Of a DNA stretch of 64,000 nt, positions 50,814-62,130 are shown in pieces (position 1 is the first letter of the stretch; each line of letters opens with the position of its first letter). Both the position numbers and the translations under genes were made by a program. Location: the sequence record OL960581, one strand, 5' to 3'. The DNA comes from Escherichia phage vB_EcoM_SA20RB. The notes beneath the pieces are model-generated. The model had not been told where the DNA came from. It made no database searches and worked only from the letters and a program-made list of their open reading frames with translations.

Positions 50814-53800
50814 ATGGCCGAGATTAAAAGAAAGTTCAGAGCAGAAGACGGTCTGGACGCAGGTGGCGATAAAATAATCAACGTAGCTTTAGCTGATCGT
50901 ACCGTAGGAACTGACGGTGTTAACGTTGATTACCTAATTCAAGAAAACACAGTTCAACAATATGATCCAACTCGTGGATATTTAAAAGATTTTGTAATCA
51001 TTTATGATAACCGCTTTTGGGCTGCTATAAATGATATTCCAAAACCAGCAGGAACTTTTAATAGTGGACGCTGGAGAGCATTGCGTACTGATGCTAACTG
51101 GATTACAGTTTCATATGGTTCATATCAATTAAAATCCGGTGAAGCTATTTCGGTTAACACTGCAGCTGGTAATGATATTACGTTTACTTTACCATCTTCC
51201 CCAATTGACGGTGATACTATCGTTCTCCAAGATATTGGAGGAAAACCTGGAGTTAACCAAGTTTTAATTGTAGCTCCAGTGCAAAGTATTGTAAACTTCA
51301 GAGGTGAACAAGTACGTTCAGTACTAATGACTCATCCAAAGTCACAGCTAGTTTTAATTTTTAGTAATCGTCTGTGGCAAATGTATGTAGCTGATTATAG
51401 TAGAGAAGCTGTAGTTGTAACACCAGCGAATACTTATCAAGCACAATCCAACGATTTTATCGTACGTAGATTTACTTCTGCTGCACCGATAAATATTAAA
51501 CTTCCGAGATTTGCTAATCACGGCGATATTATTAATTTCGTCGATTTGGATAAATTAAACCCTCTTTATCATACAATTGTTACTACATATGATGAAACGA
51601 CATCAGTACAAGAAGATGGAACTCATTCCATTGAAGGCCGTACATCGATTGACGGTTTCTTGATGTTTGATGATAATGAGAAATTATGGAGATTGTTTGA
51701 CGGGGACAGTAAAGCACGTTTACGTATCATAACAACTAATTCAAACATTCGTCCAAATGAAGAAGTTATGGTATTTGGTGCGAATAATGGAACAACTCAA
51801 ACGATTGAGCTTCAGCTTCCAACTAATATTTCTGTTGGTGATACTGTTAAAATTTCCATGAATTACATGAGAAAAGGACAAACGGTTAAAATCAAAGCTG
51901 CCGGTGAAGATAAAATTGCTTCTTCAGTTCAATTGCTGCAATTCCCAAAACGTTCAGAATATCCACCTGAAGCTGAATGGGTGACTGTCCAAGAATTAGT
52001 TTTTAACGGTGAAACTAATTATGTTCCAGTTTTACAACTTGCTTATATAGAAGATTCTGATGGAAAATACTGGGTTGTACAGCAAAACGTTCCAACTGTA
52101 GAAAGAGTTGATTCTTTAAATGATTCTACTAGAGCAAGATTAGGCGTGATTGCTTTAGCTACACAAGCGCAAGCTAATGTCGATTTAGAAAATTCTCCGC
52201 AAAAAGAATTAGCAATTACTCCAGAAACATTAGCTAACCGTACTGCTACAGAAACTCGTAGAGGTATCGCAAGAATAGCAACCACTGCTCAAGTAAATCA
52301 GAACACCACATTCTCTTTTGCTGATGATATTATCATCACTCCTAAAAAGCTGAATGAAAGAACTGCTACAGAAACTCGTAGAGGTGTTGCTGAAATTGCT
52401 ACGCAACAGGAAACTAATGCAGGTACTGATGATACTGCAATCATCACTCCTAAAAAGCTTCAAGCTCGTCAGGGTTCTGAATCATTATCTGGTATTGTAA
52501 CCTTTGTATCTACCGCAGGAGCTACTCCAGCTTCTAGTCGTGAATTAAATGGTACAAACGTTTATAATAAAAACACTAATAATTTAGTTGTTTCGCCTAA
52601 AGCTCTGGATCAGTATAAAGCTACTCCAACACAGCAAGGTGCAGTAATTTTAGCAGTTGAAAGCGAAGTAATTGCTGGACAGAGTCAAGAAGGATGGGCA
52701 AATGCGGTTGTAACACCAGAAACGTTACATAAAAAGACATCAACTGATGGAAGAATTGGTTTAATTGAAATTGCTACGCAAAGTGAAGTTAATACAGGAA
52801 CTGATTATACTCGTGCAGTCACTCCTAAAACTTTAAATGACCGTAAAGCAACTGAAAGTTTAAGTGGTATAGCTGAAATTGCTACGCAAGTTGAATTCGA
52901 CGCAGGCGTCGACGATACTCGTATCTCTACACCATTAAAAATTAAAACTAGATTTAATAGTACTGATCGTACTTCTGTTGTTGCTCTATCTGGATTAGTT
53001 GAATCAGGAACTCTCTGGGACCATTATACCCTTAATATTCTTGAAGCAAATGAGACACAGCGTGGTACACTTCGTGTAGCTACACAAGTTGAAGCTGCTG
53101 CAGGAACATTAGATAATGTTTTAATAACTCCTAAAAAGCTTTTAGGTACTAAATCTACCGAATCGCAGGAAGGTGTTATTAAAGTTGCAACTCAGTCTGA
53201 AACTGTAACTGGAACGTCAGCAAATACTGCTGTATCTCCAAAAAATTTAAAATGGATTGTACAGAGTGAACCTACTTGGGCAGCTACTACTGCGATAAGA
53301 GGCTTTGTTAAAACTTCATCTGGCTCAATTACATTCGTTGGTAATGATACAGCTGGTTCAACGCAGGACTTAGAGTTATATGAGAAAAATAGCTATGCAG
53401 TATCACCATATGAATTAAACCGTGTATTAGCAAATTATTTGCCATTAAAAGCAAAAGCTGCTGACGCAAATTTATTGGATGGTCTAGATTCATCCCAGTT
53501 CATTCGTAGGGATATTGCACAGACTGTTAATGGTTCACTAACCTTAACCCAACAAACGAATCTGAGTGCCCCTCTTGTATCATCTAGTACTGCTACGTTT
53601 GGCGGATCAGTTTCGGCAAACAGCACATTAACTATTTCTAATACTGGAACGGCAACTCGTCTGATTTTTGAGAAAGGACCTCAAACTGGAACTAACCCAG
53701 TACAGACGATGACTATCAGAGTTTGGGGAAATCAGTTTGGTGGCGGTTCAGATACAACACGTTCTACTGTATTTGAAGTTGGTGATGAAACGTCTAATCA

Positions 53801-54683
53801 CTTTTATTCTCAACGCAATAAAGCTGGGAATATAACGTTTAGTATCAATGGTACTGTAATGCCAATAAATGTTAATGCTTCGGGTTCTTTGAATGCGAAC
53901 GGCGTTGCAACATTTGGTAGCTCAGTTACAGCAAATGGTGAATTCATCAGCAAGTCTGCAAATGCTTTCAGAGCAATAAACGGTGATTATGGATTCTTTA
54001 TTCGTAATGATGCTGCTAACACCTATTTTATGCTTACTGCATCGGGTGATCAGACTGGCGGATTTAATGGATTACGTCCTTTAGCTATTAATAATGCATC
54101 TGGTCAAGTAACGATTGGTGAAAGCTTAATCATTGCCAAAGGTGCTACTATAAATTCAGGTGGTTTAACTGTTAACTCGAGAATTCGTTCTCAAGGTACT
54201 AAAACATCTGACCTATACACCCGTGCGCCAACATCTGATACTGTAGGATTCTGGTCAATTGACATTAATGATTCAGCTACTTATAACCAGTTCCCGGGTT
54301 ATTTTAAAATGGTTGAAAAAACTAATGAAGTGACTGGACTTCCATACTTAGAACGTGGCGAAGAAGTTAAATCTCCTGGTACATTAACTCAGTTTGGTAA
54401 CACACTTGATTCGCTTTACCAAGATTGGATTACTTATCCAACGACTCCAGAAGCGCGCACCACTCGCTGGACACGCACATGGCAGAAAACCAAAAACTCC
54501 TGGTCAAGTTTTGTTCAGGTATTTGATGGAGGTAACCCTCCTCAACCATCTGATATTGGTGCTTTACCATCTGATAATGCTACAATGGGGAATCTTACTA
54601 TTCGTGATTTCTTACGAATTGGTAATGTTCGCATTATTCCTGACCCAGTGAATAAAACGGTTAAATTTGAATGGGTTGAATAA
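50814..54683 (+). CDS. 34: Long tail fibre proximal subunit gp34
   Basis: 1289-aa ORF. Confidence 0.95.
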   Translation: MAEIKRKFRAEDGLDAGGDKIINVALADRTVGTDGVNVDYLIQENTVQQYDPTRGYLKDFVIIYDNRFWAAINDIPKPAGTFNSGRWRALRTDANWITVSYGSYQLKSGEAISVNTAAGNDITFTLPSSPIDGDTIVLQDIGGKPGVNQVLIVAPVQSIVNFRGEQVRSVLMTHPKSQLVLIFSNRLWQMYVADYSREAVVVTPANTYQAQSNDFIVRRFTSAAPINIKLPRFANHGDIINFVDLDKLNPLYHTIVTTYDETTSVQEDGTHSIEGRTSIDGFLMFDDNEKLWRLFDGDSKARLRIITTNSNIRPNEEVMVFGANNGTTQTIELQLPTNISVGDTVKISMNYMRKGQTVKIKAAGEDKIASSVQLLQFPKRSEYPPEAEWVTVQELVFNGETNYVPVLQLAYIEDSDGKYWVVQQNVPTVERVDSLNDSTRARLGVIALATQAQANVDLENSPQKELAITPETLANRTATETRRGIARIATTAQVNQNTTFSFADDIIITPKKLNERTATETRRGVAEIATQQETNAGTDDTAIITPKKLQARQGSESLSGIVTFVSTAGATPASSRELNGTNVYNKNTNNLVVSPKALDQYKATPTQQGAVILAVESEVIAGQSQEGWANAVVTPETLHKKTSTDGRIGLIEIATQSEVNTGTDYTRAVTPKTLNDRKATESLSGIAEIATQVEFDAGVDDTRISTPLKIKTRFNSTDRTSVVALSGLVESGTLWDHYTLNILEANETQRGTLRVATQVEAAAGTLDNVLITPKKLLGTKSTESQEGVIKVATQSETVTGTSANTAVSPKNLKWIVQSEPTWAATTAIRGFVKTSSGSITFVGNDTAGSTQDLELYEKNSYAVSPYELNRVLANYLPLKAKAADANLLDGLDSSQFIRRDIAQTVNGSLTLTQQTNLSAPLVSSSTATFGGSVSANSTLTISNTGTATRLIFEKGPQTGTNPVQTMTIRVWGNQFGGGSDTTRSTVFEVGDETSNHFYSQRNKAGNITFSINGTVMPINVNASGSLNANGVATFGSSVTANGEFISKSANAFRAINGDYGFFIRNDAANTYFMLTASGDQTGGFNGLRPLAINNASGQVTIGESLIIAKGATINSGGLTVNSRIRSQGTKTSDLYTRAPTSDTVGFWSIDINDSATYNQFPGYFKMVEKTNEVTGLPYLERGEEVKSPGTLTQFGNTLDSLYQDWITYPTTPEARTTRWTRTWQKTKNSWSSFVQVFDGGNPPQPSDIGALPSDNATMGNLTIRDFLRIGNVRIIPDPVNKTVKFEWVE

Positions 54684-54691
54684 GAGGTATT

Positions 54692-55807
54692 ATGGAAAAA
54701 TTTATGGCAGAGTTTGGACAAGGATATGTCCAAACGCCATTTTTATCGGAAAGTAATTCAGTAAGATACAAAATAAGTATAGCGGGTTCTTGCCCGCTTT
54801 CTACAGCAGGACCATACGTTAAATTTCAGGATAATCCTGTCGGAAATCAAACATTTAGCGCAGGTCTTCATTTAAGAGTTTTTGATCCTTCCACCGGAGC
54901 ATTAGTTGATAGTAAGTCATATGCTTTTTCGACTTCAAATGATACTACATCAGCTGCTTTTGTTAGTTTCATGAATTCTTTGACGAATAATAGACTTGTT
55001 GCTATATTAACTAACGGAAAGGTTAATTTTCCTCCTGAAGTAGTATCTTGGCTAAGAGCCGCAGGAACGTCTGCTTTTCCATCTGATTCTATATTGTCAA
55101 GATTCGACGTATCATATGCTGCTTTTTACACTTCTTCTAAAAGAGCTATTGCATTAGAGCATGTTAAATTAAGTAATAGAAAAAGCACAGATGATTATCA
55201 AACTATTTTAGATGTTGTATTTGACAGTTTAGAAGACGTTGGAGCTACCGGATTTCCAAGAAGAACGTATGAAAGCGTTGATCAATTTATGTCGGCAGTT
55301 GGCGGAACTAATAATGAAATTGCGCGATTGCCAACTTCAGCTGCCATAAGTAAATTATCTGACTATAATTTAATTCCTGGTGATGTTCTTTATCTTAAAG
55401 CTCAGTTATATGCTGATGCCGATTTACTTGCGCTTGGAACTACAAATATATCTATCCGTTTTTATAATGCATCGAATGGATATATTTCTTCAACACAAGC
55501 TGAGTTTACCGGACAAGCTGGGTCTTGGGAATTAAAGGAAGATTATGTAGTTGTTCCAGAAAATGCAGTAGGATTTACGATATACGCACAAAGAACTGCA
55601 CAAGCCGGTCAAGGTGGCATGAGAAATTTAAGCTTTTCTGAAGTGTCAAGAAATGGAGGTATTTCGAAACCTGCTGAATTTGGCGTCAATGGTATTCGTG
55701 TTAATTATATCTGTGAATCTGCTTCACCTCCGGATATAATGGTACTTCCTACGCAAGCATCGTCTAAAACTGGTAAAGTGTTTGGGCAAGAATTTAGAGA
55801 AGTATAA
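54692..55807 (+). CDS. 35: Long tail fibre hinge protein gp35
   Basis: 371-aa ORF. Confidence 0.9.
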   Translation: MEKFMAEFGQGYVQTPFLSESNSVRYKISIAGSCPLSTAGPYVKFQDNPVGNQTFSAGLHLRVFDPSTGALVDSKSYAFSTSNDTTSAAFVSFMNSLTNNRLVAILTNGKVNFPPEVVSWLRAAGTSAFPSDSILSRFDVSYAAFYTSSKRAIALEHVKLSNRKSTDDYQTILDVVFDSLEDVGATGFPRRTYESVDQFMSAVGGTNNEIARLPTSAAISKLSDYNLIPGDVLYLKAQLYADADLLALGTTNISIRFYNASNGYISSTQAEFTGQAGSWELKEDYVVVPENAVGFTIYAQRTAQAGQGGMRNLSFSEVSRNGGISKPAEFGVNGIRVNYICESASPPDIMVLPTQASSKTGKVFGQEFREV

Positions 55808-55812
55808 ATTGA

Positions 55813-55830
55813 GGGAGCCTTCGGGTTCCC
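55813..55830 (+). terminator. Hairpin GGGAGCC-TTCG-GGTTCCC with T-run after gene 35
   Basis: 7-bp stem (one G-U pair), TTCG loop, T5 run. Confidence 0.5.
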
Positions 55831-55838
55831 TTTTTCTT

Positions 55839-55869: not shown

Positions 55870-56529
55870 ATGGCTGATTTAAAAGTAGGTTCAACAACCG
55901 GAGGCTCTGTCATTTGGCATCAAGGAAATTTTCCATTGAATCCAGCCGGTGACGATGTACTCTATAAATCATTTAAAATATATTCAGAATATAATAAACC
56001 ACAAGCTGCTGATAACGATTTCGTTTCTAAAGCTAATGGCGGTATTTATCTAAACCGAGTTACCTTTAACCAGGGTATTCAAGTCCCGGGAGCTGGCAAT
56101 GGTCTGACCGGGATGTTTGTTGGGCCAGGTGATGGAGCAACTTATGATAATGTTAACCTTGATATAATATCTTGGTATGGTATCGGATTTAAATCATCTC
56201 AAGGAACAGGACCTAGGACAATTGTTTTTAACGTTCGTGACGGTGAAATTTCGGCCCGTGGTAATATAAATTCACAGCGTCAGGTGCGAGCCGAAGCCGC
56301 AGCGCCCATTGCCGCAAATGACCTTACTAGAAAGGACTATGTTGATGGAGCAATAAATACTGTTACGGCAAATGCGAACTCTAGAGTGTTACGATCTGGC
56401 GATACTATGACGGGTAACTTAACCGCACCAAACTTTTTCTCGCAGAATCCTGCATCTCAACCTTCACACGTTCCGCGATTTGACCAAATCGTAATTAAGG
56501 ATTCTGTTCAAGATTTCGGCTATTATTAA
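55870..56529 (+). CDS. 36: Long tail fibre distal connector gp36
   Basis: 219-aa ORF. Confidence 0.9.
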   Translation: MADLKVGSTTGGSVIWHQGNFPLNPAGDDVLYKSFKIYSEYNKPQAADNDFVSKANGGIYLNRVTFNQGIQVPGAGNGLTGMFVGPGDGATYDNVNLDIISWYGIGFKSSQGTGPRTIVFNVRDGEISARGNINSQRQVRAEAAAPIAANDLTRKDYVDGAINTVTANANSRVLRSGDTMTGNLTAPNFFSQNPASQPSHVPRFDQIVIKDSVQDFGYY

Positions 56530-56537
56530 GAGGACTT

Positions 56538-59500
56538 ATGGCTACTTTAAAACAAATACAATTTAAAAGAAGCAAAACCGCAGGTGCACGTCCTGCTGCT
56601 TCAGTATTAGCCGAAGGTGAATTGGCTATAAACTTAAAAGATAGAACACTTTTTACTAAAGATGATTCAGGAAATATCATTGATTTAAGCATTTCCACTG
56701 GCGGTAATATCAGTGGAAATATCACTCAAACTGGTGATTATTTACAAAATGGAACATATAATCTTAATGGAAACCAGTTTGTTTATGCAGGAAAATATAT
56801 TGAATTTTTACCTAAAACTGCTGGTAATGGTGCTTGGGCAAACCAACATAAAAATAAAGCTCCTATCTTTACCGATTTGAGTTCAACTACTTCTACTTCA
56901 GAATACCATCCGCTAATTAAACAACGCTATAAAGATGGAACTTTTTCTGTTGGTACGTTAGTAAATGAAGGAAGTTTTAAAATTCAATATATCAATGAAT
57001 CTGGTGATTCAAAATATTGGACTTTTAATCGAAACGGTAGTTTTATTGTAGATAATGGCAGTATTGAAGTCCGTGCAGGTAATATTTCGGCTTCAGGTAA
57101 TATTAACTCGGCAACTGGATTTGTTTCTGCACCGCGCGTCAATACAAAAAATATTAACCTGAGTTCTAAAACCTTTATACCGAATAATGACACGGGTTAT
57201 GACATTGTTTCTTTACCTACTTGGATTTATAATCCACCAGCAGATGGTTCTGACCGTGATACAAACGGATTGAACTACATGCGTAAAATGCGGGCTTCAA
57301 ATACTTCTAGCATTTTCCATGAAATAGTTGACTGTCGTTCGGGAAAGCCGCAAGAAATTTCTTGGTGGACCGGCGTAGGACCTTCGTCTTTCCAGTGGGC
57401 GTTTGATACCTCTGGACGTATTACCGCAGGTAAATCTATTTCAGTAGGTCTTCCTGATAATGGTACAAATGGGCGTTATCCTTTAGAGTCTGCCATTTCC
57501 ATTGGTATTGCAATTGGCGATAACGATACTGGTATTAAATGGGTCCGTGATGGCGTTTATGACCTGATGGCTAACGGTATTTCATCCGCTACCATTTTGA
57601 ATAATGGTATTAATAGTACTAAAAAATTGATGGTTGGTTATAGCCGTGATTCCGGCTCTACTTGGGATTTCCCAAATAACAACCAGGCAATGTTTACTGC
57701 GCGTACCGATGTTGATGGTAATAATAACGGCGATGGTCAGACTCATATCGGTTATAGCAGCAATTCTAAAATGTATCACTATTTCCGTGGCACAGGTCGT
57801 ATGTCTGTTAGCATGGGCGATGGACTTCTTGTTGAGCCAGGTATTTTAGATATTAAAACTGGGTCTAATAGAGTTGCTATTAGAGCAGATGGTACATTTG
57901 ACTCAACCCAACGTATTTCAATGCGCACTGGGTTATTTTTATCAGGTGATGACAATACCAATGCTCTGTCATTTAAAGCGCCTACAGGTGTTGACGGGAC
58001 AAAAACCATTAACTGGGATGCAGGTACTCGTAATGGTCAGAATAAAAATACTGTAACCATTAAAGCGTGGGGTAACTCATTTAACTCAAATCCGGGTAAT
58101 AGAGAAACTGTATTCGAAGTTTCAGATTCACAAGGTTATTATTTCTACGCTCAACGTACTAATCCTGCGCCAGGTCAAACAGTAGGTCCGGTTAACTTTA
58201 AATTTAACGGAACTGTCGAAACAGGCCATATCATAGGCCTTGGTAATATAAGTGCCTCTGGTACAGGTTCTTTTGGTGGCAATGTTACCATGTCTAATGG
58301 TTTGTTTGTTCAAGGTGGTTCTTCTATTACTGGACAGGTAAAAATTGGTGGAACAGCTGATGCATTAAGAATTTGGAATGCTGAATATGGTGCTATTTTC
58401 CGCCGTTCGGAAAGTAATCTTTATATTATCCCGACTCCTAAAGGTGCCGGAGAATCAGGCGGTATAAGTAATCTTAGACCATTGATAATAGAACTGAACA
58501 CCGGCACAGTTAAAATGTCGCATGATGTTCATTTAGGAGATTCTGGATCTGGTACAGGATTATTACAAGTAAGTAATAGTCTTAAAACTATTAAAATGAT
58601 ATGTCCAGTAACTATTAATGAACGTAATGCAGCGCTTACTTTAGATTCTCCTTCATCTTCTTCTGCTAATTATTTGCAGGGTTCTAAAGCTGGAACTAGA
58701 TCGTGGTATGTTGGTCTTGGTGGTGCTGGAAATGATTTATCACTTTATAGCCAATCTTATGGACATGGTCTTGTTATAAGTGATAATTTCACGTCAATCA
58801 CTAAACCTCTTAAAGTCGGAAATGCCCAACTAGGAACTGACGGTAATATTACCAACGGTTCAGGAAACTTTGCCAACTTAAATACCACGTTAAATCGTAA
58901 AGTTAATTCTGGATTTATTACTTACGGTTCAACTGCTGGATGGTATAAGTTTGCAACAGTAACAATGCCACAATCTACTTCGACAGTCTTCTTTAAAATA
59001 GTTGGAGGTTCTGGATTTAATAGCGGATTATTCACCCAATGTAATATTGCTGAAATTGTTTTACGTACTAGTAATGAAAGACCTGCTGACTTAAATGCTG
59101 TATTATACACAAGAACATCTGGAATGTATAGCGCAGCATTTAGAAATATTTCAGTTAACAATGTCTCTGGAAATACATATGACATTTATGTTTATGCTGG
59201 AACATATTGTAATCAACTAGTTTGTGAGTGGTCATGTACCGAAAATGCTACTGTTAGTGTTATTGGTATTAACTCATCTACCCAATCACCGGTGGATGCT
59301 CTTCCAGATACAGCAGTCGATGGGCAAGTTGCTAATGTTCTTAATAATTTAGTTGATCGTGGCAAAGTTAAGCGCTTCGAAGCTGATTCTGAAATAGCTA
59401 TTAATAATCAAACCGGTATTCGTATCAGAAGCAACAGCGATAAAACTGGTTCTGTTGCTACAATGCTACGAAATGATGGCGGTAGTTTTTATATTCTATT

Positions 59501-60347
59501 TACAGATAAAAATGCCACCGATGGCGCAGCAACCGTTAATGGTGATTGGAATAGTAAACGTCCTTTTGCAATTAACTTAACAACCGGCGAAGTGCTAATG
59601 AATAACGGCATAGCTGTTCGCAGCGCTGCTTTATTCTATAATAGTATAAATGTCAAAGATAACGGTTCTATTAACTTTGATAAGTCTGGTGCTAACCCAA
59701 GAAATATGAGAATATTTCATGCTGGCGATGCTTCTCGTGGTAACCGTATTGAAATTGCAGATGAAACTAACTATATTGCTTACTTTGAAAAAGCTCCAGG
59801 TGGAGCTAACCGCTTTGTAGTAAATAATGCTACTGTAGCTGGTGTTAATCAAATGAATTCATTTGGTATTAACATCAATAACGCACTTGGTGGAAATAGT
59901 ATAGCATTTGGTGATAATGATACTGGAATTAAACAATCCGGCGACGGACTTCTTGATATTATTACTAACGCCGCACGCCGAATGAGATTCCAGACGGGTG
60001 ACACTTATTCTGACATGAATATAAATGCCCCAAACGTTTATATTCGTTCTGATATTCGTTTGAAATCTAATTTCAGACCTATTGAAAATGCTCTTGAAAA
60101 GGTTGAACAGCTTGATGGTTTAATCTATGATAAAGCTGACTATATAGGTGGTGAAATTGTTCAGACTGAAGCGGGTATTGTGGCTCAAACACTGCAAGAC
60201 GTTTTACCAGAAGCAGTTCGTGAAGTTGAAGACATTAAGGGTAATAAAATACTCACTGTTTCTTCTCAATCCCAGATTGCTCTTCTAGTTGAAGCTGTGA
60301 AAACACTTTCTTCTCGTGTAAAAGAACTTGAATCTAAACTTATGTAA
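56538..60347 (+). CDS. 37: Long tail fibre distal subunit gp37 with C-terminal intramolecular-chaperone-like domain
   Basis: 1269-aa ORF; last ~99 aa (SDIRLKSNFRPIENALEKVEQLDGLIYDK...) resemble self-cleaving fibre chaperone domains. Confidence 0.92.
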   Translation: MATLKQIQFKRSKTAGARPAASVLAEGELAINLKDRTLFTKDDSGNIIDLSISTGGNISGNITQTGDYLQNGTYNLNGNQFVYAGKYIEFLPKTAGNGAWANQHKNKAPIFTDLSSTTSTSEYHPLIKQRYKDGTFSVGTLVNEGSFKIQYINESGDSKYWTFNRNGSFIVDNGSIEVRAGNISASGNINSATGFVSAPRVNTKNINLSSKTFIPNNDTGYDIVSLPTWIYNPPADGSDRDTNGLNYMRKMRASNTSSIFHEIVDCRSGKPQEISWWTGVGPSSFQWAFDTSGRITAGKSISVGLPDNGTNGRYPLESAISIGIAIGDNDTGIKWVRDGVYDLMANGISSATILNNGINSTKKLMVGYSRDSGSTWDFPNNNQAMFTARTDVDGNNNGDGQTHIGYSSNSKMYHYFRGTGRMSVSMGDGLLVEPGILDIKTGSNRVAIRADGTFDSTQRISMRTGLFLSGDDNTNALSFKAPTGVDGTKTINWDAGTRNGQNKNTVTIKAWGNSFNSNPGNRETVFEVSDSQGYYFYAQRTNPAPGQTVGPVNFKFNGTVETGHIIGLGNISASGTGSFGGNVTMSNGLFVQGGSSITGQVKIGGTADALRIWNAEYGAIFRRSESNLYIIPTPKGAGESGGISNLRPLIIELNTGTVKMSHDVHLGDSGSGTGLLQVSNSLKTIKMICPVTINERNAALTLDSPSSSSANYLQGSKAGTRSWYVGLGGAGNDLSLYSQSYGHGLVISDNFTSITKPLKVGNAQLGTDGNITNGSGNFANLNTTLNRKVNSGFITYGSTAGWYKFATVTMPQSTSTVFFKIVGGSGFNSGLFTQCNIAEIVLRTSNERPADLNAVLYTRTSGMYSAAFRNISVNNVSGNTYDIYVYAGTYCNQLVCEWSCTENATVSVIGINSSTQSPVDALPDTAVDGQVANVLNNLVDRGKVKRFEADSEIAINNQTGIRIRSNSDKTGSVATMLRNDGGSFYILFTDKNATDGAATVNGDWNSKRPFAINLTTGEVLMNNGIAVRSAALFYNSINVKDNGSINFDKSGANPRNMRIFHAGDASRGNRIEIADETNYIAYFEKAPGGANRFVVNNATVAGVNQMNSFGININNALGGNSIAFGDNDTGIKQSGDGLLDIITNAARRMRFQTGDTYSDMNINAPNVYIRSDIRLKSNFRPIENALEKVEQLDGLIYDKADYIGGEIVQTEAGIVAQTLQDVLPEAVREVEDIKGNKILTVSSQSQIALLVEAVKTLSSRVKELESKLM

Positions 60348-60349
60348 AA

Positions 60350-60365
60350 GAGGGCTTCGGCCCTC
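60350..60365 (+). terminator. Hairpin GAGGGC-TTCG-GCCCTC after gene 37
   Basis: 6-bp stem, TTCG loop, 3 nt after stop. Confidence 0.5.
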
Positions 60366-60377
60366 TAAGGATTTTTA

Positions 60378-61169
60378 ATGGCAATTGTAGGTGTTCCTGG
60401 CTGGATTGGTGAATCTGCCGTAAATGAAACTGGACAACGCTGGATGGATGCTGCGATGAAAGCAGTTCGTGTTTCAGTTCCTGGTTGGATGAGCTCAATG
60501 GCTGGACAATCTAAAGAAGTATATTACAGTATTGGTGCTAGCAATTCTTATAATAAAGACACACTAATAAATTGGATAAAAGCCCAAGGAAGTACTCCTG
60601 TTGTTATTACAATTACAGGCAATATCGTTTCTTCATCGACAGGTCAACCATGCTTAGATTTTCCTAGCTCATTAACTAATGCATACGTTACCTTAAATAT
60701 TAATAGCGGGGTTCATGTATTAGGTCGGGGAGGAAATGGCGGAAGTAACTCTGCCGGTGGAGCAGGCGGAACTGCAATAAATAACGGAATTGGAACTCGT
60801 TTAAGAATAAACAATAATGGTATTATCGGTGGTGGTGGTGGCGGGGGCGCTGGTGCTAGATATCATCCTTTCCCCCAAATGGATATGATATTTGGTGGCG
60901 GCGGCGGTCGTCCATTTGGTGCAGCAGGTGCAGCAGGCGGCGGCGCAGCGGCAGCATCTGCCGCTACAATTTCTGCTCCTGGTAAAGGCACTGTTTCTGG
61001 GGTTCACCATGGAGGAGATGGTGGAGATTTGGGGGCTGCGGGCAAATCTTCATATATTCAAGGTGGTACTGGAGGAACTGTTCACTCGGGTGGCGCAGCA
61101 GGTAAAGCTGTTACTGGTAATGCTCCAACTTGGACTAAAGTTGGTACAATATATGGTGCAAGAGTATAA
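60378..61169 (+). CDS. 38: Receptor-binding adhesin gp38 (T2/T6 type, glycine-rich motifs)
   Basis: 263-aa ORF; conserved MAIVGVPGWIG N-terminus and GKAVTGNAPTWTKVGTIYG C-terminus bracket poly-Gly blocks. Confidence 0.88.
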   Translation: MAIVGVPGWIGESAVNETGQRWMDAAMKAVRVSVPGWMSSMAGQSKEVYYSIGASNSYNKDTLINWIKAQGSTPVVITITGNIVSSSTGQPCLDFPSSLTNAYVTLNINSGVHVLGRGGNGGSNSAGGAGGTAINNGIGTRLRINNNGIIGGGGGGGAGARYHPFPQMDMIFGGGGGRPFGAAGAAGGGAAAASAATISAPGKGTVSGVHHGGDGGDLGAAGKSSYIQGGTGGTVHSGGAAGKAVTGNAPTWTKVGTIYGARV

Positions 61170-61200
61170 TTTTGAATAAATATCCTTAAAAGGAGGGTCT

Positions 61201-61857
61201 ATGGCAGCACCTAGAATATCATTTTCGCCCTCTGATATTCTGTTTGGTGTTCTAGATCGCTTGTTCAAAGATAACGCTACCGGGAAAGTTCTTGCTTCCC
61301 GGGTAGCTGTCGTAATTCTTTTGTTTATAATGGCGATTGTTTGGTATAGGGGAGATAGTTTCTTTGAGTACTATAAGCAATCAAAGTATGAAACATACAG
61401 TGAAATTATTGAAAAGGAAAGAAATGCACGCTTTGAATCTGTCGCCCTGGAACAACTCCAGATAGTTCATATATCATCTGAGGCAGACTTTAGTGCGGTG
61501 TATTCTTTCCGCCCTAAAAACTTAAACTATTTTGTTGATATTATAGCATATGAAGGAAAATTACCTTCAACAATAAGTGAAAAATCACTTGGAGGATATC
61601 CTGTTGATAAAACTATGGATGAATATGCAGTTCATTTAAATGGACGTCATTATTATTCCAACTCAAAATTTGCTTTTTTACCAACCAAAAAGCCTACTCC
61701 CGAAATAAATTACATGTACAGTTGTCCATATTTCAATTTGGATAATATCTATGCTGGAACAATAACCATGTACTGGTATAGAAATGATCATATAAGTAAT
61801 GACCGCCTTGAATCAATATGTGCTCAGGCGGCCAGAATATTAGGAAGGGCTAAATAA
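61201..61857 (+). CDS. t: Holin T
   Basis: 218-aa ORF, single TM (VAVVILLFIMAIVWY) and large C-terminal periplasmic domain. Confidence 0.93.
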   Translation: MAAPRISFSPSDILFGVLDRLFKDNATGKVLASRVAVVILLFIMAIVWYRGDSFFEYYKQSKYETYSEIIEKERNARFESVALEQLQIVHISSEADFSAVYSFRPKNLNYFVDIIAYEGKLPSTISEKSLGGYPVDKTMDEYAVHLNGRHYYSNSKFAFLPTKKPTPEINYMYSCPYFNLDNIYAGTITMYWYRNDHISNDRLESICAQAARILGRAK

Positions 61858-62130
61858 TTATTTGTTCGTATACATCTCTAGATATCGATATACACCCTCA
61901 AAACCCTCGTTGAATTCGTCGATGAGGGTTTTCTTATCTTCTTGAGTTAATTCAGAAACAATTTTACGGAATGAATTCTGATTTAATTTTCTACCTTCAT
62001 GCGTTACTCCAATCTCATTCAGAAATGCAATAAAATTAGCACGATTCTCAACAATATCTTCTCTGGAAAATTTAATCAAAATAGACGCAACAGTAATAAT
62101 TTCACGAACTGTATCAATATTTTTATTCAT
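61858..62130 (-). CDS. asiA: Anti-sigma70 factor AsiA
   Basis: 90-aa ORF MNKNIDTVREIITVASILIKF... Confidence 0.93.
   Translation of the reverse strand: MNKNIDTVREIITVASILIKFSREDIVENRANFIAFLNEIGVTHEGRKLNQNSFRKIVSELTQEDKKTLIDEFNEGFEGVYRYLEMYTNK

Follow-up and report, generated by a model that had tools for sequence, protein, structure and literature searches.

This locus raises the question of which kind of receptor-recognising end is carried by the long tail fibre of Escherichia phage vB_EcoM_SA20RB (sequence record OL960581), that of T4 or that of T2 and T6, and which receptor it would recognise. Within the window, meaning the whole 64,000-nucleotide stretch of DNA that was analysed, the genes run gp34-gp35-gp36-gp37-gp38-t-asiA, as in a Tequatrovirus, with gp38 between gene 37 and the holin gene t, an order common to T2, T6, S16, ADUt, Kelasse, AV114 and Bas43 (Table 1). 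We consider it highly probable that the locus encodes the distal end of the long tail fibre of a T2/T6-type rather than a T4-type Tequatrovirus, in which a self-cleaving gp37 is capped by gp38, with Tsx as the most probable receptor. The biology of such modules is already established, and this one is an ordinary, well-studied T2/T6-like receptor end; what is new here is the receptor call, probably the nucleoside channel Tsx as primary receptor.

Table 1 Features of the gp37-gp38 locus (positions refer to the window)
Feature	Coordinates	Strand	Description
gp37 ORF	56538-60347	+	1269 aa; stop codon 60345-60347
Predicted mature gp37, residues 1-1170	56538-60047	+	long tail fibre distal subunit, 125.2 kDa
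gp37 shaft distal tip, residues 1101-1170	59838-60047	+	ends NINAPNVYIR; predicted gp38 docking face, by S16 homology
gp37 Peptidase_S74 / intramolecular chaperone (IMC) domain, residues 1171-1269	60048-60344	+	99 aa, 10.9 kDa, pI 4.7
Hairpin AGAGGGC-UUCG-GCCCUCU	60349-60366	+	between gp37 stop and gp38 Shine-Dalgarno
gp38 Shine-Dalgarno AAGGA	60367-60371	+	ATG at 60378
gp38 ORF	60378-61169	+	263 aa, 25.5 kDa
gp38 N-terminal attachment domain, residues 1-45	60378-60512	+	Gp38_N; three short helices
gp38 residues 46-115, N-terminal part of central beta-helix domain	60513-60722	+	aligned to 6F45_D; beta strands pLDDT 95-97
gp38 specificity region, residues 116-247	60723-61118	+	five glycine-rich motifs (GRM) alternating with hypervariable segments (HVS)
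GRM1	60723-60743	+	entropy profile, 67 homologues
HVS1	60744-60827	+	entropy profile, 67 homologues
GRM2	60828-60851	+	entropy profile, 67 homologues
HVS2	60852-60893	+	entropy profile, 67 homologues
GRM3	60894-60929	+	entropy profile, 67 homologues
HVS3	60930-61013	+	entropy profile, 67 homologues
GRM4	61014-61043	+	entropy profile, 67 homologues
HVS4	61044-61088	+	entropy profile, 67 homologues
GRM5	61089-61118	+	entropy profile, 67 homologues
Conserved gp38 C terminus NAPTWTKVGTIYGARV and stop codon	61119-61169	+	closes beta-helix (predicted)

gp37 is a T2-type distal subunit ending in a Peptidase_S74 domain

gp37 was assigned to PHROG 1699, 'long tail fiber protein distal subunit' (E = 5e-293), and carries the Pfam domains Gp34_trimer and gp37_trimer besides Peptidase_S74. 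A preliminary description of this DNA had given its length as 1269 amino acids, against about 1026 for T4, and both figures were right, the first by the exact coordinates of the open reading frame and the second by the T4 record. Residues 1-785 are homologous to T4 gp37 (41% identity, BLASTP), but the alignment stops at about residue 785, and the distal ~385 residues are of the T2 type, not the T4 type. The protein is a mosaic of NR1-like segments (93.5% at the amino-acid level) and REP4-like segments (91.5%), and a look-up of the exact gp37 sequence returned no match. T2 gp37 (1341 aa) is 52% identical overall, T6 gp37 (994 aa, with a chaperone domain of 113 aa) is 19% identical over the residues of the window's gp37, and S16 gp37 has 749 aa.

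The last 99 amino acids of gp37 (SDIRLKSNFRPIENA...) occupy the extreme C terminus of the distal subunit of the long tail fibre, the position characteristic of the S74 family, and Pfam Peptidase_S74 (PF13884) matched residues 1171-1228 over its full length (model 1-58/58; E = 8e-14; 52.1 bits, with a Pfam cut-off of 22 bits). The match begins at the equivalent serine in T2, T6 and S16 gp37, the three relatives scanned. The SDxRxK-type motif that had been placed at the start of these 99 residues is there and intact, as SDIRLK, with nucleotide 60048 the first base of the Ser1171 codon; the tripeptide YIR, quoted earlier as part of the same segment, lies upstream of it at residues 1168-1170 and is therefore the predicted new C terminus of mature gp37, not part of the released domain. 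Ser1171 (60048-60050) is the predicted nucleophile, Lys1176 (60063-60065) the predicted general base and Arg1170^Ser1171 the predicted scissile bond.

SD.R.K occurred once per sequence in 8/8 gp37 homologues, each time opening the C-terminal domain, and its S, D, R and K were invariant in six homologues, including T2, T6, S16, ADUt and NR1. Both the motif and this domain layout are shared by T2, T6, S16, ADUt, Kelasse, AV114 and Bas43. Because the S74 match covers the full model and the motif is single and fixed in position among homologues, SDIRLK is not a chance occurrence. The domain is 87-89% identical to the IMC domains of T2, NR1 and ADUt (87% for T2, whose S74 domain also has 99 aa and starts SDIRLK) and is homologous to the S16 gp37 IMC in the chain A sequence of 6F45 (profile E = 9e-41). 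Profile matches in the PDB comprised 6F45_A, MYRF (7DC3), a tail fibre (8JOV) and the GA-1 neck-appendage chaperone (3GUD), with SDIRLK aligned to SDERHK in 3GUD, whose chain begins at the homologous serine, and to SDERLK in 8JOV. The S74 domains of K1F endosialidase, GA-1 and MYRF share the full PF13884 model, the S-D-x-R-x-K motif and a C-terminal place in a trimeric fibre, but their sequence similarity to it is low (profile E = 1e-2 to 3e-8). The full-length match, the intact Ser/Lys dyad and the high identity to T2, NR1 and ADUt bear out the chaperone-like identity proposed for this domain.

Self-cleavage of the gp37 C terminus is predicted here by homology. T2 and T6 gp37 are cut C-terminally by proteolysis, and the gp38 cap follows (PMC3157838); for T2, the processing is credited to Drexler 1986, as cited in PMC3157838. 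S16 gp37 autocleaves its IMC just ahead of the serine of SDRRIK, which exposes the gp38 docking face, and for the fPS phages the predicted cut is DVYIR^SDGRLK (both PMC7917993). The predicted cleavage context here, NVYIR^SDIRLK, differs from that of S16, DLNVS^SDRRIK. Among S74-bearing systems, in T2/S16-type fibres alone cleavage also makes a docking site for a separate adhesin (PMC7917993).

gp38 is a full-length homologue of T2/T6-type adhesins

The gp38 frame matched Pfam Gp38_N (PF21721; model 1-40/40; 64.7 bits; E = 7e-18) and GP38 (PF05268; residues 47-263; model 1-218/218; 231.5 bits; E = 1e-68), was assigned to PHROG 2056 (E = 9e-101) and aligned with the S16 gp38 crystal chain 6F45_D over residues 8-261 (E = 3e-47); 173 homologues were found at E <= 1e-5. 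An AlphaFold (AF2) model (pLDDT 92, pTM 0.85) predicts a beta-helix with a polyglycine-II sandwich, and the only significant Foldseek matches of this model in the PDB were 6F45_D and 9V85 (E = 1e-22 to 3e-18; TM 0.73-0.89; TM pairs 0.79/0.84 and 0.75/0.89, respectively). T2 gp38 is 63% identical and shares the Pfam domains and the GRM scaffold; identity is 54% overall to T6 gp38, 48% to S16 gp38 and ~40% to PP01 gp38 (RBD, 9V85), the last two of which bind OmpC. By full-length sequence, predicted fold and gene order, this is the T2/T6-type gp38 adhesin that had been proposed.

In the N-terminal domain, the model places helices at residues 10-18, 23-29 and 38-41, preceded by Trp9, Trp22 and Trp37. 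All three tryptophans were invariant in an 8-sequence gp38 alignment (including T2, T6 and S16), and Trp9 and Trp22 were at least 90% conserved among 67 gp38 sequences. The role of these three residues in docking to the gp37 trimer has been described (PMC6851490), and by homology Trp9, Trp22 and Trp37 would plug into the gp37 trimer here. S16 has in common with this locus the full-length gp38 homology, the three docking tryptophans, the GRM lattice positions and a homologous gp37 IMC, which in S16 is cut at the equivalent serine. From residue ~1113 on, gp37 aligns to 6F45 chain A, the S16 gp37 tip (phmmer), and NINAPNVYIR directly before the serine is kept in T2, ADUt, Kelasse, AV114 and Bas43. 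Because gp37 residues ~1101-1160 are unlike their counterparts in T2, Bas43 and AV114, whose gp38 N termini are nearly identical, the conserved last strand and S16 are the sole guides to the docking geometry. At the other end of gp38, P250, W252, G256 and G260 were invariant and mean entropy was 0.80 bits.

Glycine-rich motifs alternate with hypervariable segments

Glycine makes up 33% of gp38 residues 116-263 versus 10% of residues 1-115, with runs of G7, G5 and G3, and the specificity region has a GC content of 0.54 versus 0.36 for the whole window because of its GGN codons. In the 67-sequence gp38 alignment, column entropy was 0.25-0.77 bits in the GRMs, 2.05-2.65 bits in HVS2-4 and ~0.8-1.0 bits in the termini, whereas variability in HVS1 (0.94 bits) was confined to particular places, with indels concentrated after residues 122 and 128. 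This contrast confirms the conserved termini and the poly-Gly blocks separating variable segments that the preliminary description had seen in the 263-aa protein, and the alignment with T2, T6 and related adhesins that it had proposed mapped HVS1-4 and GRM1-5. The specificity region is predicted to form a polyglycine-II sandwich, the distal loops of which would contact the receptor. The suggestion that host range is set by the gp38 loops agrees with swap and point-mutant experiments in relatives (PMC3157838; bioRxiv 10.64898/2026.04.02.716166).

Near-identity to Tsx-dependent adhesins points to the receptor

The hypervariable alleles place this gp38 nearer to T6 than to T2 in HVS2 and HVS3. 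T6, the classical Tsx-dependent phage, whose gp38 is said to bind Tsx (Trojet et al. 2011), has the same module, with the HVS2 motif Y-x-PFPQM and much of HVS3, including the core TIS(A/S)PG-G-V-G, in common with the window; it differs in HVS4 (GRCNIRGQGSEYD versus KSSYIQGGTGGTVHS). T2 gp38, reportedly a FadL/OmpF-binding adhesin (Riede et al. 1987), has other HVS2-4 alleles (T2 HVS2 is SLKNSYPTNGSC), and because these differ, its receptor FadL differs from the Tsx predicted here.

Much closer are the gp38 proteins of Bas43, AV114/AV115, Kelasse, ADUt and the slur07 type, at 96-99.6% protein identity, and in these relatives the adhesin sits on unlike gp37 shafts (46-71% identity, 1243-1327 aa). 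The window's gp38 is 97% identical to those of Bas43 TadeuszReichstein and AV114. Tsx is listed as the primary receptor of Bas43 TadeuszReichstein (PMC8594841, supplementary file 5), the AV114 adhesin was shown to recognise Tsx and AV115 is also Tsx-dependent (PMC10844046), and gp38 phylogenies indicate that closely related gp38s recognise the same receptor (PMC12032242). Codon changes relative to ADUt and L010 were 18 synonymous and 0-1 nonsynonymous, and relative to Bas43, AV114 and Kelasse 41-43 synonymous and 8 nonsynonymous, a pattern that indicates purifying selection on gp38 with its function apparently maintained. Because of the 97% identity to Tsx-dependent adhesins and the mostly synonymous differences, Tsx is the likely receptor. 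Compared with the Tsx-verified alleles, HVS2 shows no change and HVS3 and HVS4 differ at only 2-3 positions; in the specificity region the differences are A196G, H211Y and D214N, plus Q228K relative to Bas43. We caution against treating the assignment as certain, because of these 3-4 differences and because a single HVS3 change, Q206L, is reported to switch the gp38 of RB51/RB68 between OmpF and OmpW (bioRxiv 10.64898/2026.04.02.716166).

As to the distribution of this allele, the identical gp38 protein was found on two public contigs, one of which differs by 1 nt across gp37 and gp38, equivalent to one gp37 residue. Low-complexity filtering hides the glycine-rich half of gp38, so that tblastn searches of a phage collection reached only the first ~43% of the protein in most records, and blastn with the C-terminal 470 nt of gp38 was used in its place.

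A hairpin separates the two genes

The hairpin between gp37 and gp38 was terminator-like in a scan and folds at -14.3 kcal/mol in a 61-nt context, which is unexceptional relative to shuffled sequences (z = -1.4). Similar hairpins with a UUCG loop are common between genes in T4. The hairpin sequence is identical in T2, T6 and S16 have a hairpin of different sequence at the equivalent place, and in phage NR1 the equivalent site is annotated as a terminator. Rfam (gathering thresholds) and ARAGORN returned no matches across the whole 64-kb window.

Alternative interpretations

A T4-type arrangement was rejected: T4 shares the syntenic position and the homology over gp37 residues 1-785, but T4 gp37, with Collar and Phage_fiber domains and without an S74 domain, is itself the receptor-binding protein, and T4 gp38 (183 aa) is not a virion adhesin and is unrelated to the gp38 studied here (E = 13, BLASTP). 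A related interpretation is that the S74-like domain is a non-cleaving relic, that gp37 keeps its full C terminus and that gp38 is a transient assembly factor, as in T4, or is bound elsewhere. The labels 'distal long tail fiber assembly catalyst' and 'tail assembly protein' do persist for gp38 homologues in several database records, but by the T4 record's own note these labels are a carry-over from T4 annotation, and we consider this reading very improbable because the Ser/Lys dyad is complete here and, like the D and R beside it, does not vary among the homologues, because the IMC is so similar to that of T2, whose processing was shown according to the citation of Drexler 1986 in PMC3157838, and because gp38, besides being unrelated to the T4 chaperone, has the sequence relationship and the predicted fold of the S16 and PP01 adhesins, whose crystal structures are those of receptor binders at the fibre tip. 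We give almost no credence to the view that the glycine-rich frame is a compositional artefact or pseudogene and that an overlapping frame is the real gene (60892-61179 on the plus strand, or 60801-61010 or 61050-61268 on the minus strand). Long alternative frames do stay open on both strands in such GGN-rich sequence, but homology to Pfam, PHROG and PDB entries runs the full length of the 263-aa frame, which also has numerous homologues, its own Shine-Dalgarno and ATG, and substitutions that are codon-position-specific and mostly synonymous, whereas the alternative frames are mechanical listings and were rejected as products of that composition.

A third interpretation accepts the module as described but not the receptor: the substitutions in HVS3, GRM4 and HVS4 would retarget it to OmpA, OmpF, OmpC, FadL, OmpW or a Tsx loop variant. 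The 3-4 differences from Tsx-verified alleles do sit in the specificity region, the switch reported for RB51/RB68 takes one residue, Q206L, and AV108 uses OmpA although its adhesin is said to resemble those of AV109, AV114 and AV115, a difference that the authors credit to HVS3/HVS4 (PMC10844046). We nevertheless regard a receptor other than Tsx as unlikely, given the shared HVS2 and the few differing positions in HVS3 and HVS4, the overwhelmingly synonymous differences, which argue for maintained function, the recurrence of the identical gp38 protein on three different gp37 backgrounds, and the receptor sharing of close relatives in published phylogenies. Slightly less likely again is that A196, H211, D214 and Q228 are adaptive and have retargeted the fibre to another porin or a Tsx loop variant; if true, these residues would constitute a natural minimal receptor switch like that reported for RB51/RB68.

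Proposed mechanism and implications

In the preferred reading, a self-cleaving gp37 capped by a Tsx-directed gp38, the 136-kDa gp37 precursor would carry in its last 99 residues (Ser1171-Met1269) a chaperone that starts the distal beta-helical shaft trimerising and folding and then removes itself by Ser1171/Lys1176 autoproteolysis at Arg1170^Ser1171, leaving a mature chain of 125 kDa that ends ...NVYIR. By homology, the exposed trimeric face would then take one copy of gp38 (25.5 kDa) as a cap, so that gp37 and gp38 would be present in the virion at 3:1. Attachment would be through the N-terminal three-helix domain of gp38, with Trp9, Trp22 and Trp37 inserted into three equivalent pockets; the C-terminal part would form a beta-helix from which the polyglycine-II sandwich of GRM1-5 projects, and the hypervariable loops between the glycine motifs would be the surface that binds Tsx.

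Riede 1987 and Trojet 2011 are credited with showing the adhesin role of gp38, and Dunne 2018 reportedly with the S16 tip structure (6F45). The practical value of the present analysis is limited to annotation and host-range prediction, and no new mechanistic question is opened. gp37 can be named as a self-processing precursor with a predicted cut at R1170^S1171, and gp38 as an adhesin, not a 'tail assembly protein' or 'assembly catalyst'; the predicted Tsx receptor helps in composing phage cocktails with non-overlapping receptors. The locus also adds another case in which gp38 alleles have moved among unlike gp37 shafts.

A T2/T6-type receptor module at the distal fibre locus

The preliminary description had read gp37, the long tail fibre distal subunit, and the gene next to it as a T2/T6-type receptor module, a cleavable chaperone-like domain followed by a glycine-rich adhesin; both the observation and its interpretation are correct. 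An alternative is an arrangement of the T4 kind, but T4 gp37 (1026 aa, the length given there) has Collar and Phage_fiber domains and lacks the S74 chaperone domain, T4 gp38 (183 aa) lacks a Pfam GP38 match and shows no similarity to the window gp38 (E = 13), and the window gp37 aligns with T4 gp37 over residues 1–785 only; thus, the locus is of T2/T6 type. In several GenBank records (L001, L004 and L006), the T2-type gp38 adhesin bears the label ‘tail assembly protein’ or ‘distal long tail fiber assembly catalyst’, names that stem from T4 gp38, an unrelated chaperone, and are wrong for the T2-type family.

The window comes from a T-even (Tequatrovirus) genome; an upstream stretch of 24 kb shares 95–98% identity with hundreds of T4-like phages of Escherichia and Shigella. 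Neither Rfam families (gathering thresholds) nor tRNA genes were found in the whole window (1–64000), which leaves no sign of a group I intron or a known small RNA, the nrdA/nrdB region included.

Genes and other features around the fibre locus.
Feature	Position	Strand	Remark
gp34	50814–54683
gp35	54692–55807		long tail fibre hinge protein
Hairpin 3′ of gp35	55811–55832		GC-rich, UUCG tetraloop
Late-promoter motif TATAAATA	55839		sole such motif in 54–64 kb
gp36	55870–56529
gp37	56538–60347		1269 aa
gp37 residues 651–750	58488–58787		block differing in REP4
gp37–gp38 hairpin	60349–60366		GC-rich, UUCG tetraloop
gp38	60378–61169		263 aa
gp38 glycine-rich region	60723–61118		GC 0.54
holin t	61201–61857
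asiA	61858–62130	−	opposite strand to fibre genes, convergent with holin t
Terminator-like hairpin	61900–61932	+	14 pairs, then T-rich tail

Three hairpins were observed in this region. The one separating the gp37 stop codon from the gp38 Shine-Dalgarno sequence has a conserved sequence in T2, ADUt and AV114, and in T6 and S16 a hairpin with another sequence takes its place; the second intercistronic one lies just upstream of the late-promoter motif. The third is strong and ~40 nt past the holin t stop codon, and therefore lies within the coding region of asiA. The equivalent positions of all three are annotated as terminators in phage NR1. Separately, gp35 residues 58–123 match Pfam ILEI, the interleukin-like EMT inducer/FAM3 fold (E = 3e-8, 34.5 bits; cut-off 27 bits), and gp35 of two related contigs has a precomputed ILEI match, flagged weak.

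Predicted self-cleavage of gp37

The last 99 residues of gp37 start SDIRLKSNFRPIENA, and the Ser1171 codon opens exactly at nucleotide 60048, where the module had been said to begin. The whole Pfam Peptidase_S74 model (‘chaperone of endosialidase’) matches residues 1171–1228 with 52 bits (E = 8e-14; cut-off 22 bits). The Ser/Lys dyad of this family of self-cleaving domains lies in the motif S-D-x-R-x-K, which is present once per gp37 in T2 (S1243), T6 (S882), S16 (S638), ADUt, Kelasse, AV114 and Bas43; the S, D, R and K of the motif do not vary among the aligned chaperone domains, and the S74 match starts at the motif serine in the three relatives scanned (T2, T6 and S16). A PDB profile search with these domains returned the S16 gp37 chain of 6F45 (E = 9e-41), the self-cleaving domain of MYRF (7DC3), a tail fibre (8JOV) and the neck-appendage chaperone of GA-1 (3GUD). 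The chain deposited as 3GUD begins at the homologous serine, which fits a cut directly before it. In T2 and T6, gp37 undergoes proteolysis at its C-terminus before gp38 caps it (PMC3157838). S16 gp37 autocleaves after trimerisation between two serines (DLNVS^SDRRIKK), exposing the gp38 docking surface, and a homologous cut (DVYIR^SDGRLK) has been predicted in Yersinia fPS phages (PMC7917993); the matching site in the window gp37 is NVYIR^SDIRLK. The YIR quoted in the preliminary description (residues 1168–1170) lies directly upstream of the 99-aa segment and so would form the new C-terminus of mature gp37. The precursor has a predicted mass of 136.1 kDa, of which 125.2 kDa would remain in the mature chain and 10.9 kDa would leave with the chaperone domain.

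The gp38 adhesin and its variable segments

The 263-aa protein matches Pfam GP38 over the full model (E = 1e-68), Gp38_N (E = 7e-18), PHROG 2056 (‘tail fiber protein; host specificity’), the PP01 gp38 receptor-binding domain (9V85) and, through residues 8–261, crystallised S16 gp38 (6F45_D; E = 3e-47). Trp9, Trp22 and Trp37 are invariant in the alignment with T2, T6 and S16 and correspond to the three docking tryptophans of S16, with which one gp38 molecule inserts into three equivalent pockets on the gp37 trimer (PMC6851490). In the AlphaFold model (pLDDT 92, pTM 0.85), each lies directly before one of the three short helices at the N-terminus. Foldseek against the PDB gave significant matches to 6F45_D and 9V85 only (TM 0.73–0.89), all others having E > 3, as expected for a rare polyglycine-II sandwich.

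The earlier claim that poly-Gly blocks separate variable segments holds quantitatively in the specificity region (residues 116–247): across 67 homologues, mean column entropy is 0.25–0.77 bits in the five glycine-rich motifs, against 2.05–2.65 bits in hypervariable segments HVS2, HVS3 and HVS4 and about 0.8–1.0 bits in the termini. HVS1 is variable only locally, and HVS sequences group in discrete allele classes. The high GC of the glycine-rich region (0.54, against 0.36 in the whole window) comes entirely from GGN/GCN codons, which also account for long spurious ORFs in other frames or on the opposite strand (60892–61179, +; 60801–61010, −; 61050–61268, −).

Probable receptor and modularity

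Identity to the window gp38 is 99.6% in ADUt, 97% each in Kelasse, Bas43 (TadeuszReichstein) and AV114, 63% in T2, 54% in T6 and 48% in S16. Tsx is listed as the primary receptor of Bas43, with LPS deep core as terminal receptor (PMC8594841, supplementary file 5), and Tsx recognition by AV114 and AV115 was shown by experiment (PMC10844046). Gp38 adhesins of close kinship have the same receptor (PMC12032242), and T6, the classical Tsx phage, has the same HVS2 motif (Y-x-PFPQM) as the window gp38 and most of its HVS3. Codon changes are overwhelmingly synonymous (18 synonymous and 1 nonsynonymous against ADUt, 18 and 0 against metagenomic contig L010, 41–43 and 8 against Bas43, AV114 and Kelasse), so function appears maintained. 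Tsx is probably the primary receptor. Some doubt persists: three to four replacements (A196G, H211Y, D214N, Q228K) fall in the specificity region, and in RB51/RB68 a single substitution in HVS3 reportedly switches use between OmpF and OmpW (bioRxiv 10.64898/2026.04.02.716166).

The window gp37 is a mosaic, with 93.5% identity to gp37 of NR1 and 91.5% to that of REP4, the latter being 100% identical over residues 1101–1250 and 90–100% identical outside residues 651–750; within that block NR1 is 96–100% identical but REP4 only about 30%. The boundaries are sharp, and a Gp34_trimer-type domain (residues 518–651) lies directly ahead of the block; this shared repeat may be a recombination substrate. 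The phages closest in gp38 (ADUt, Kelasse and Bas43) have gp37 only 46–49% identical to the window's, and an identical gp38 protein adjoins a 1243-aa gp37 of 68% identity on an ENA contig and, on Logan DRR684600, a 1269-aa gp37 with one residue different (1 nt of 4632 differs). Such varied gp37 backgrounds match what is known of T-even phages, among which the adhesin module is shuffled (PMC3157838).

The sequence departs nowhere from the known family, and the system is already known. The T2-type receptor module is textbook material, from T2 processing (1986) and the gp38 adhesin (1987–2011) to the S16 and PP01 structures (2018 and 2026); what is added here is only the exact predicted scissile bond, a domain map in window coordinates and the probable assignment to Tsx.
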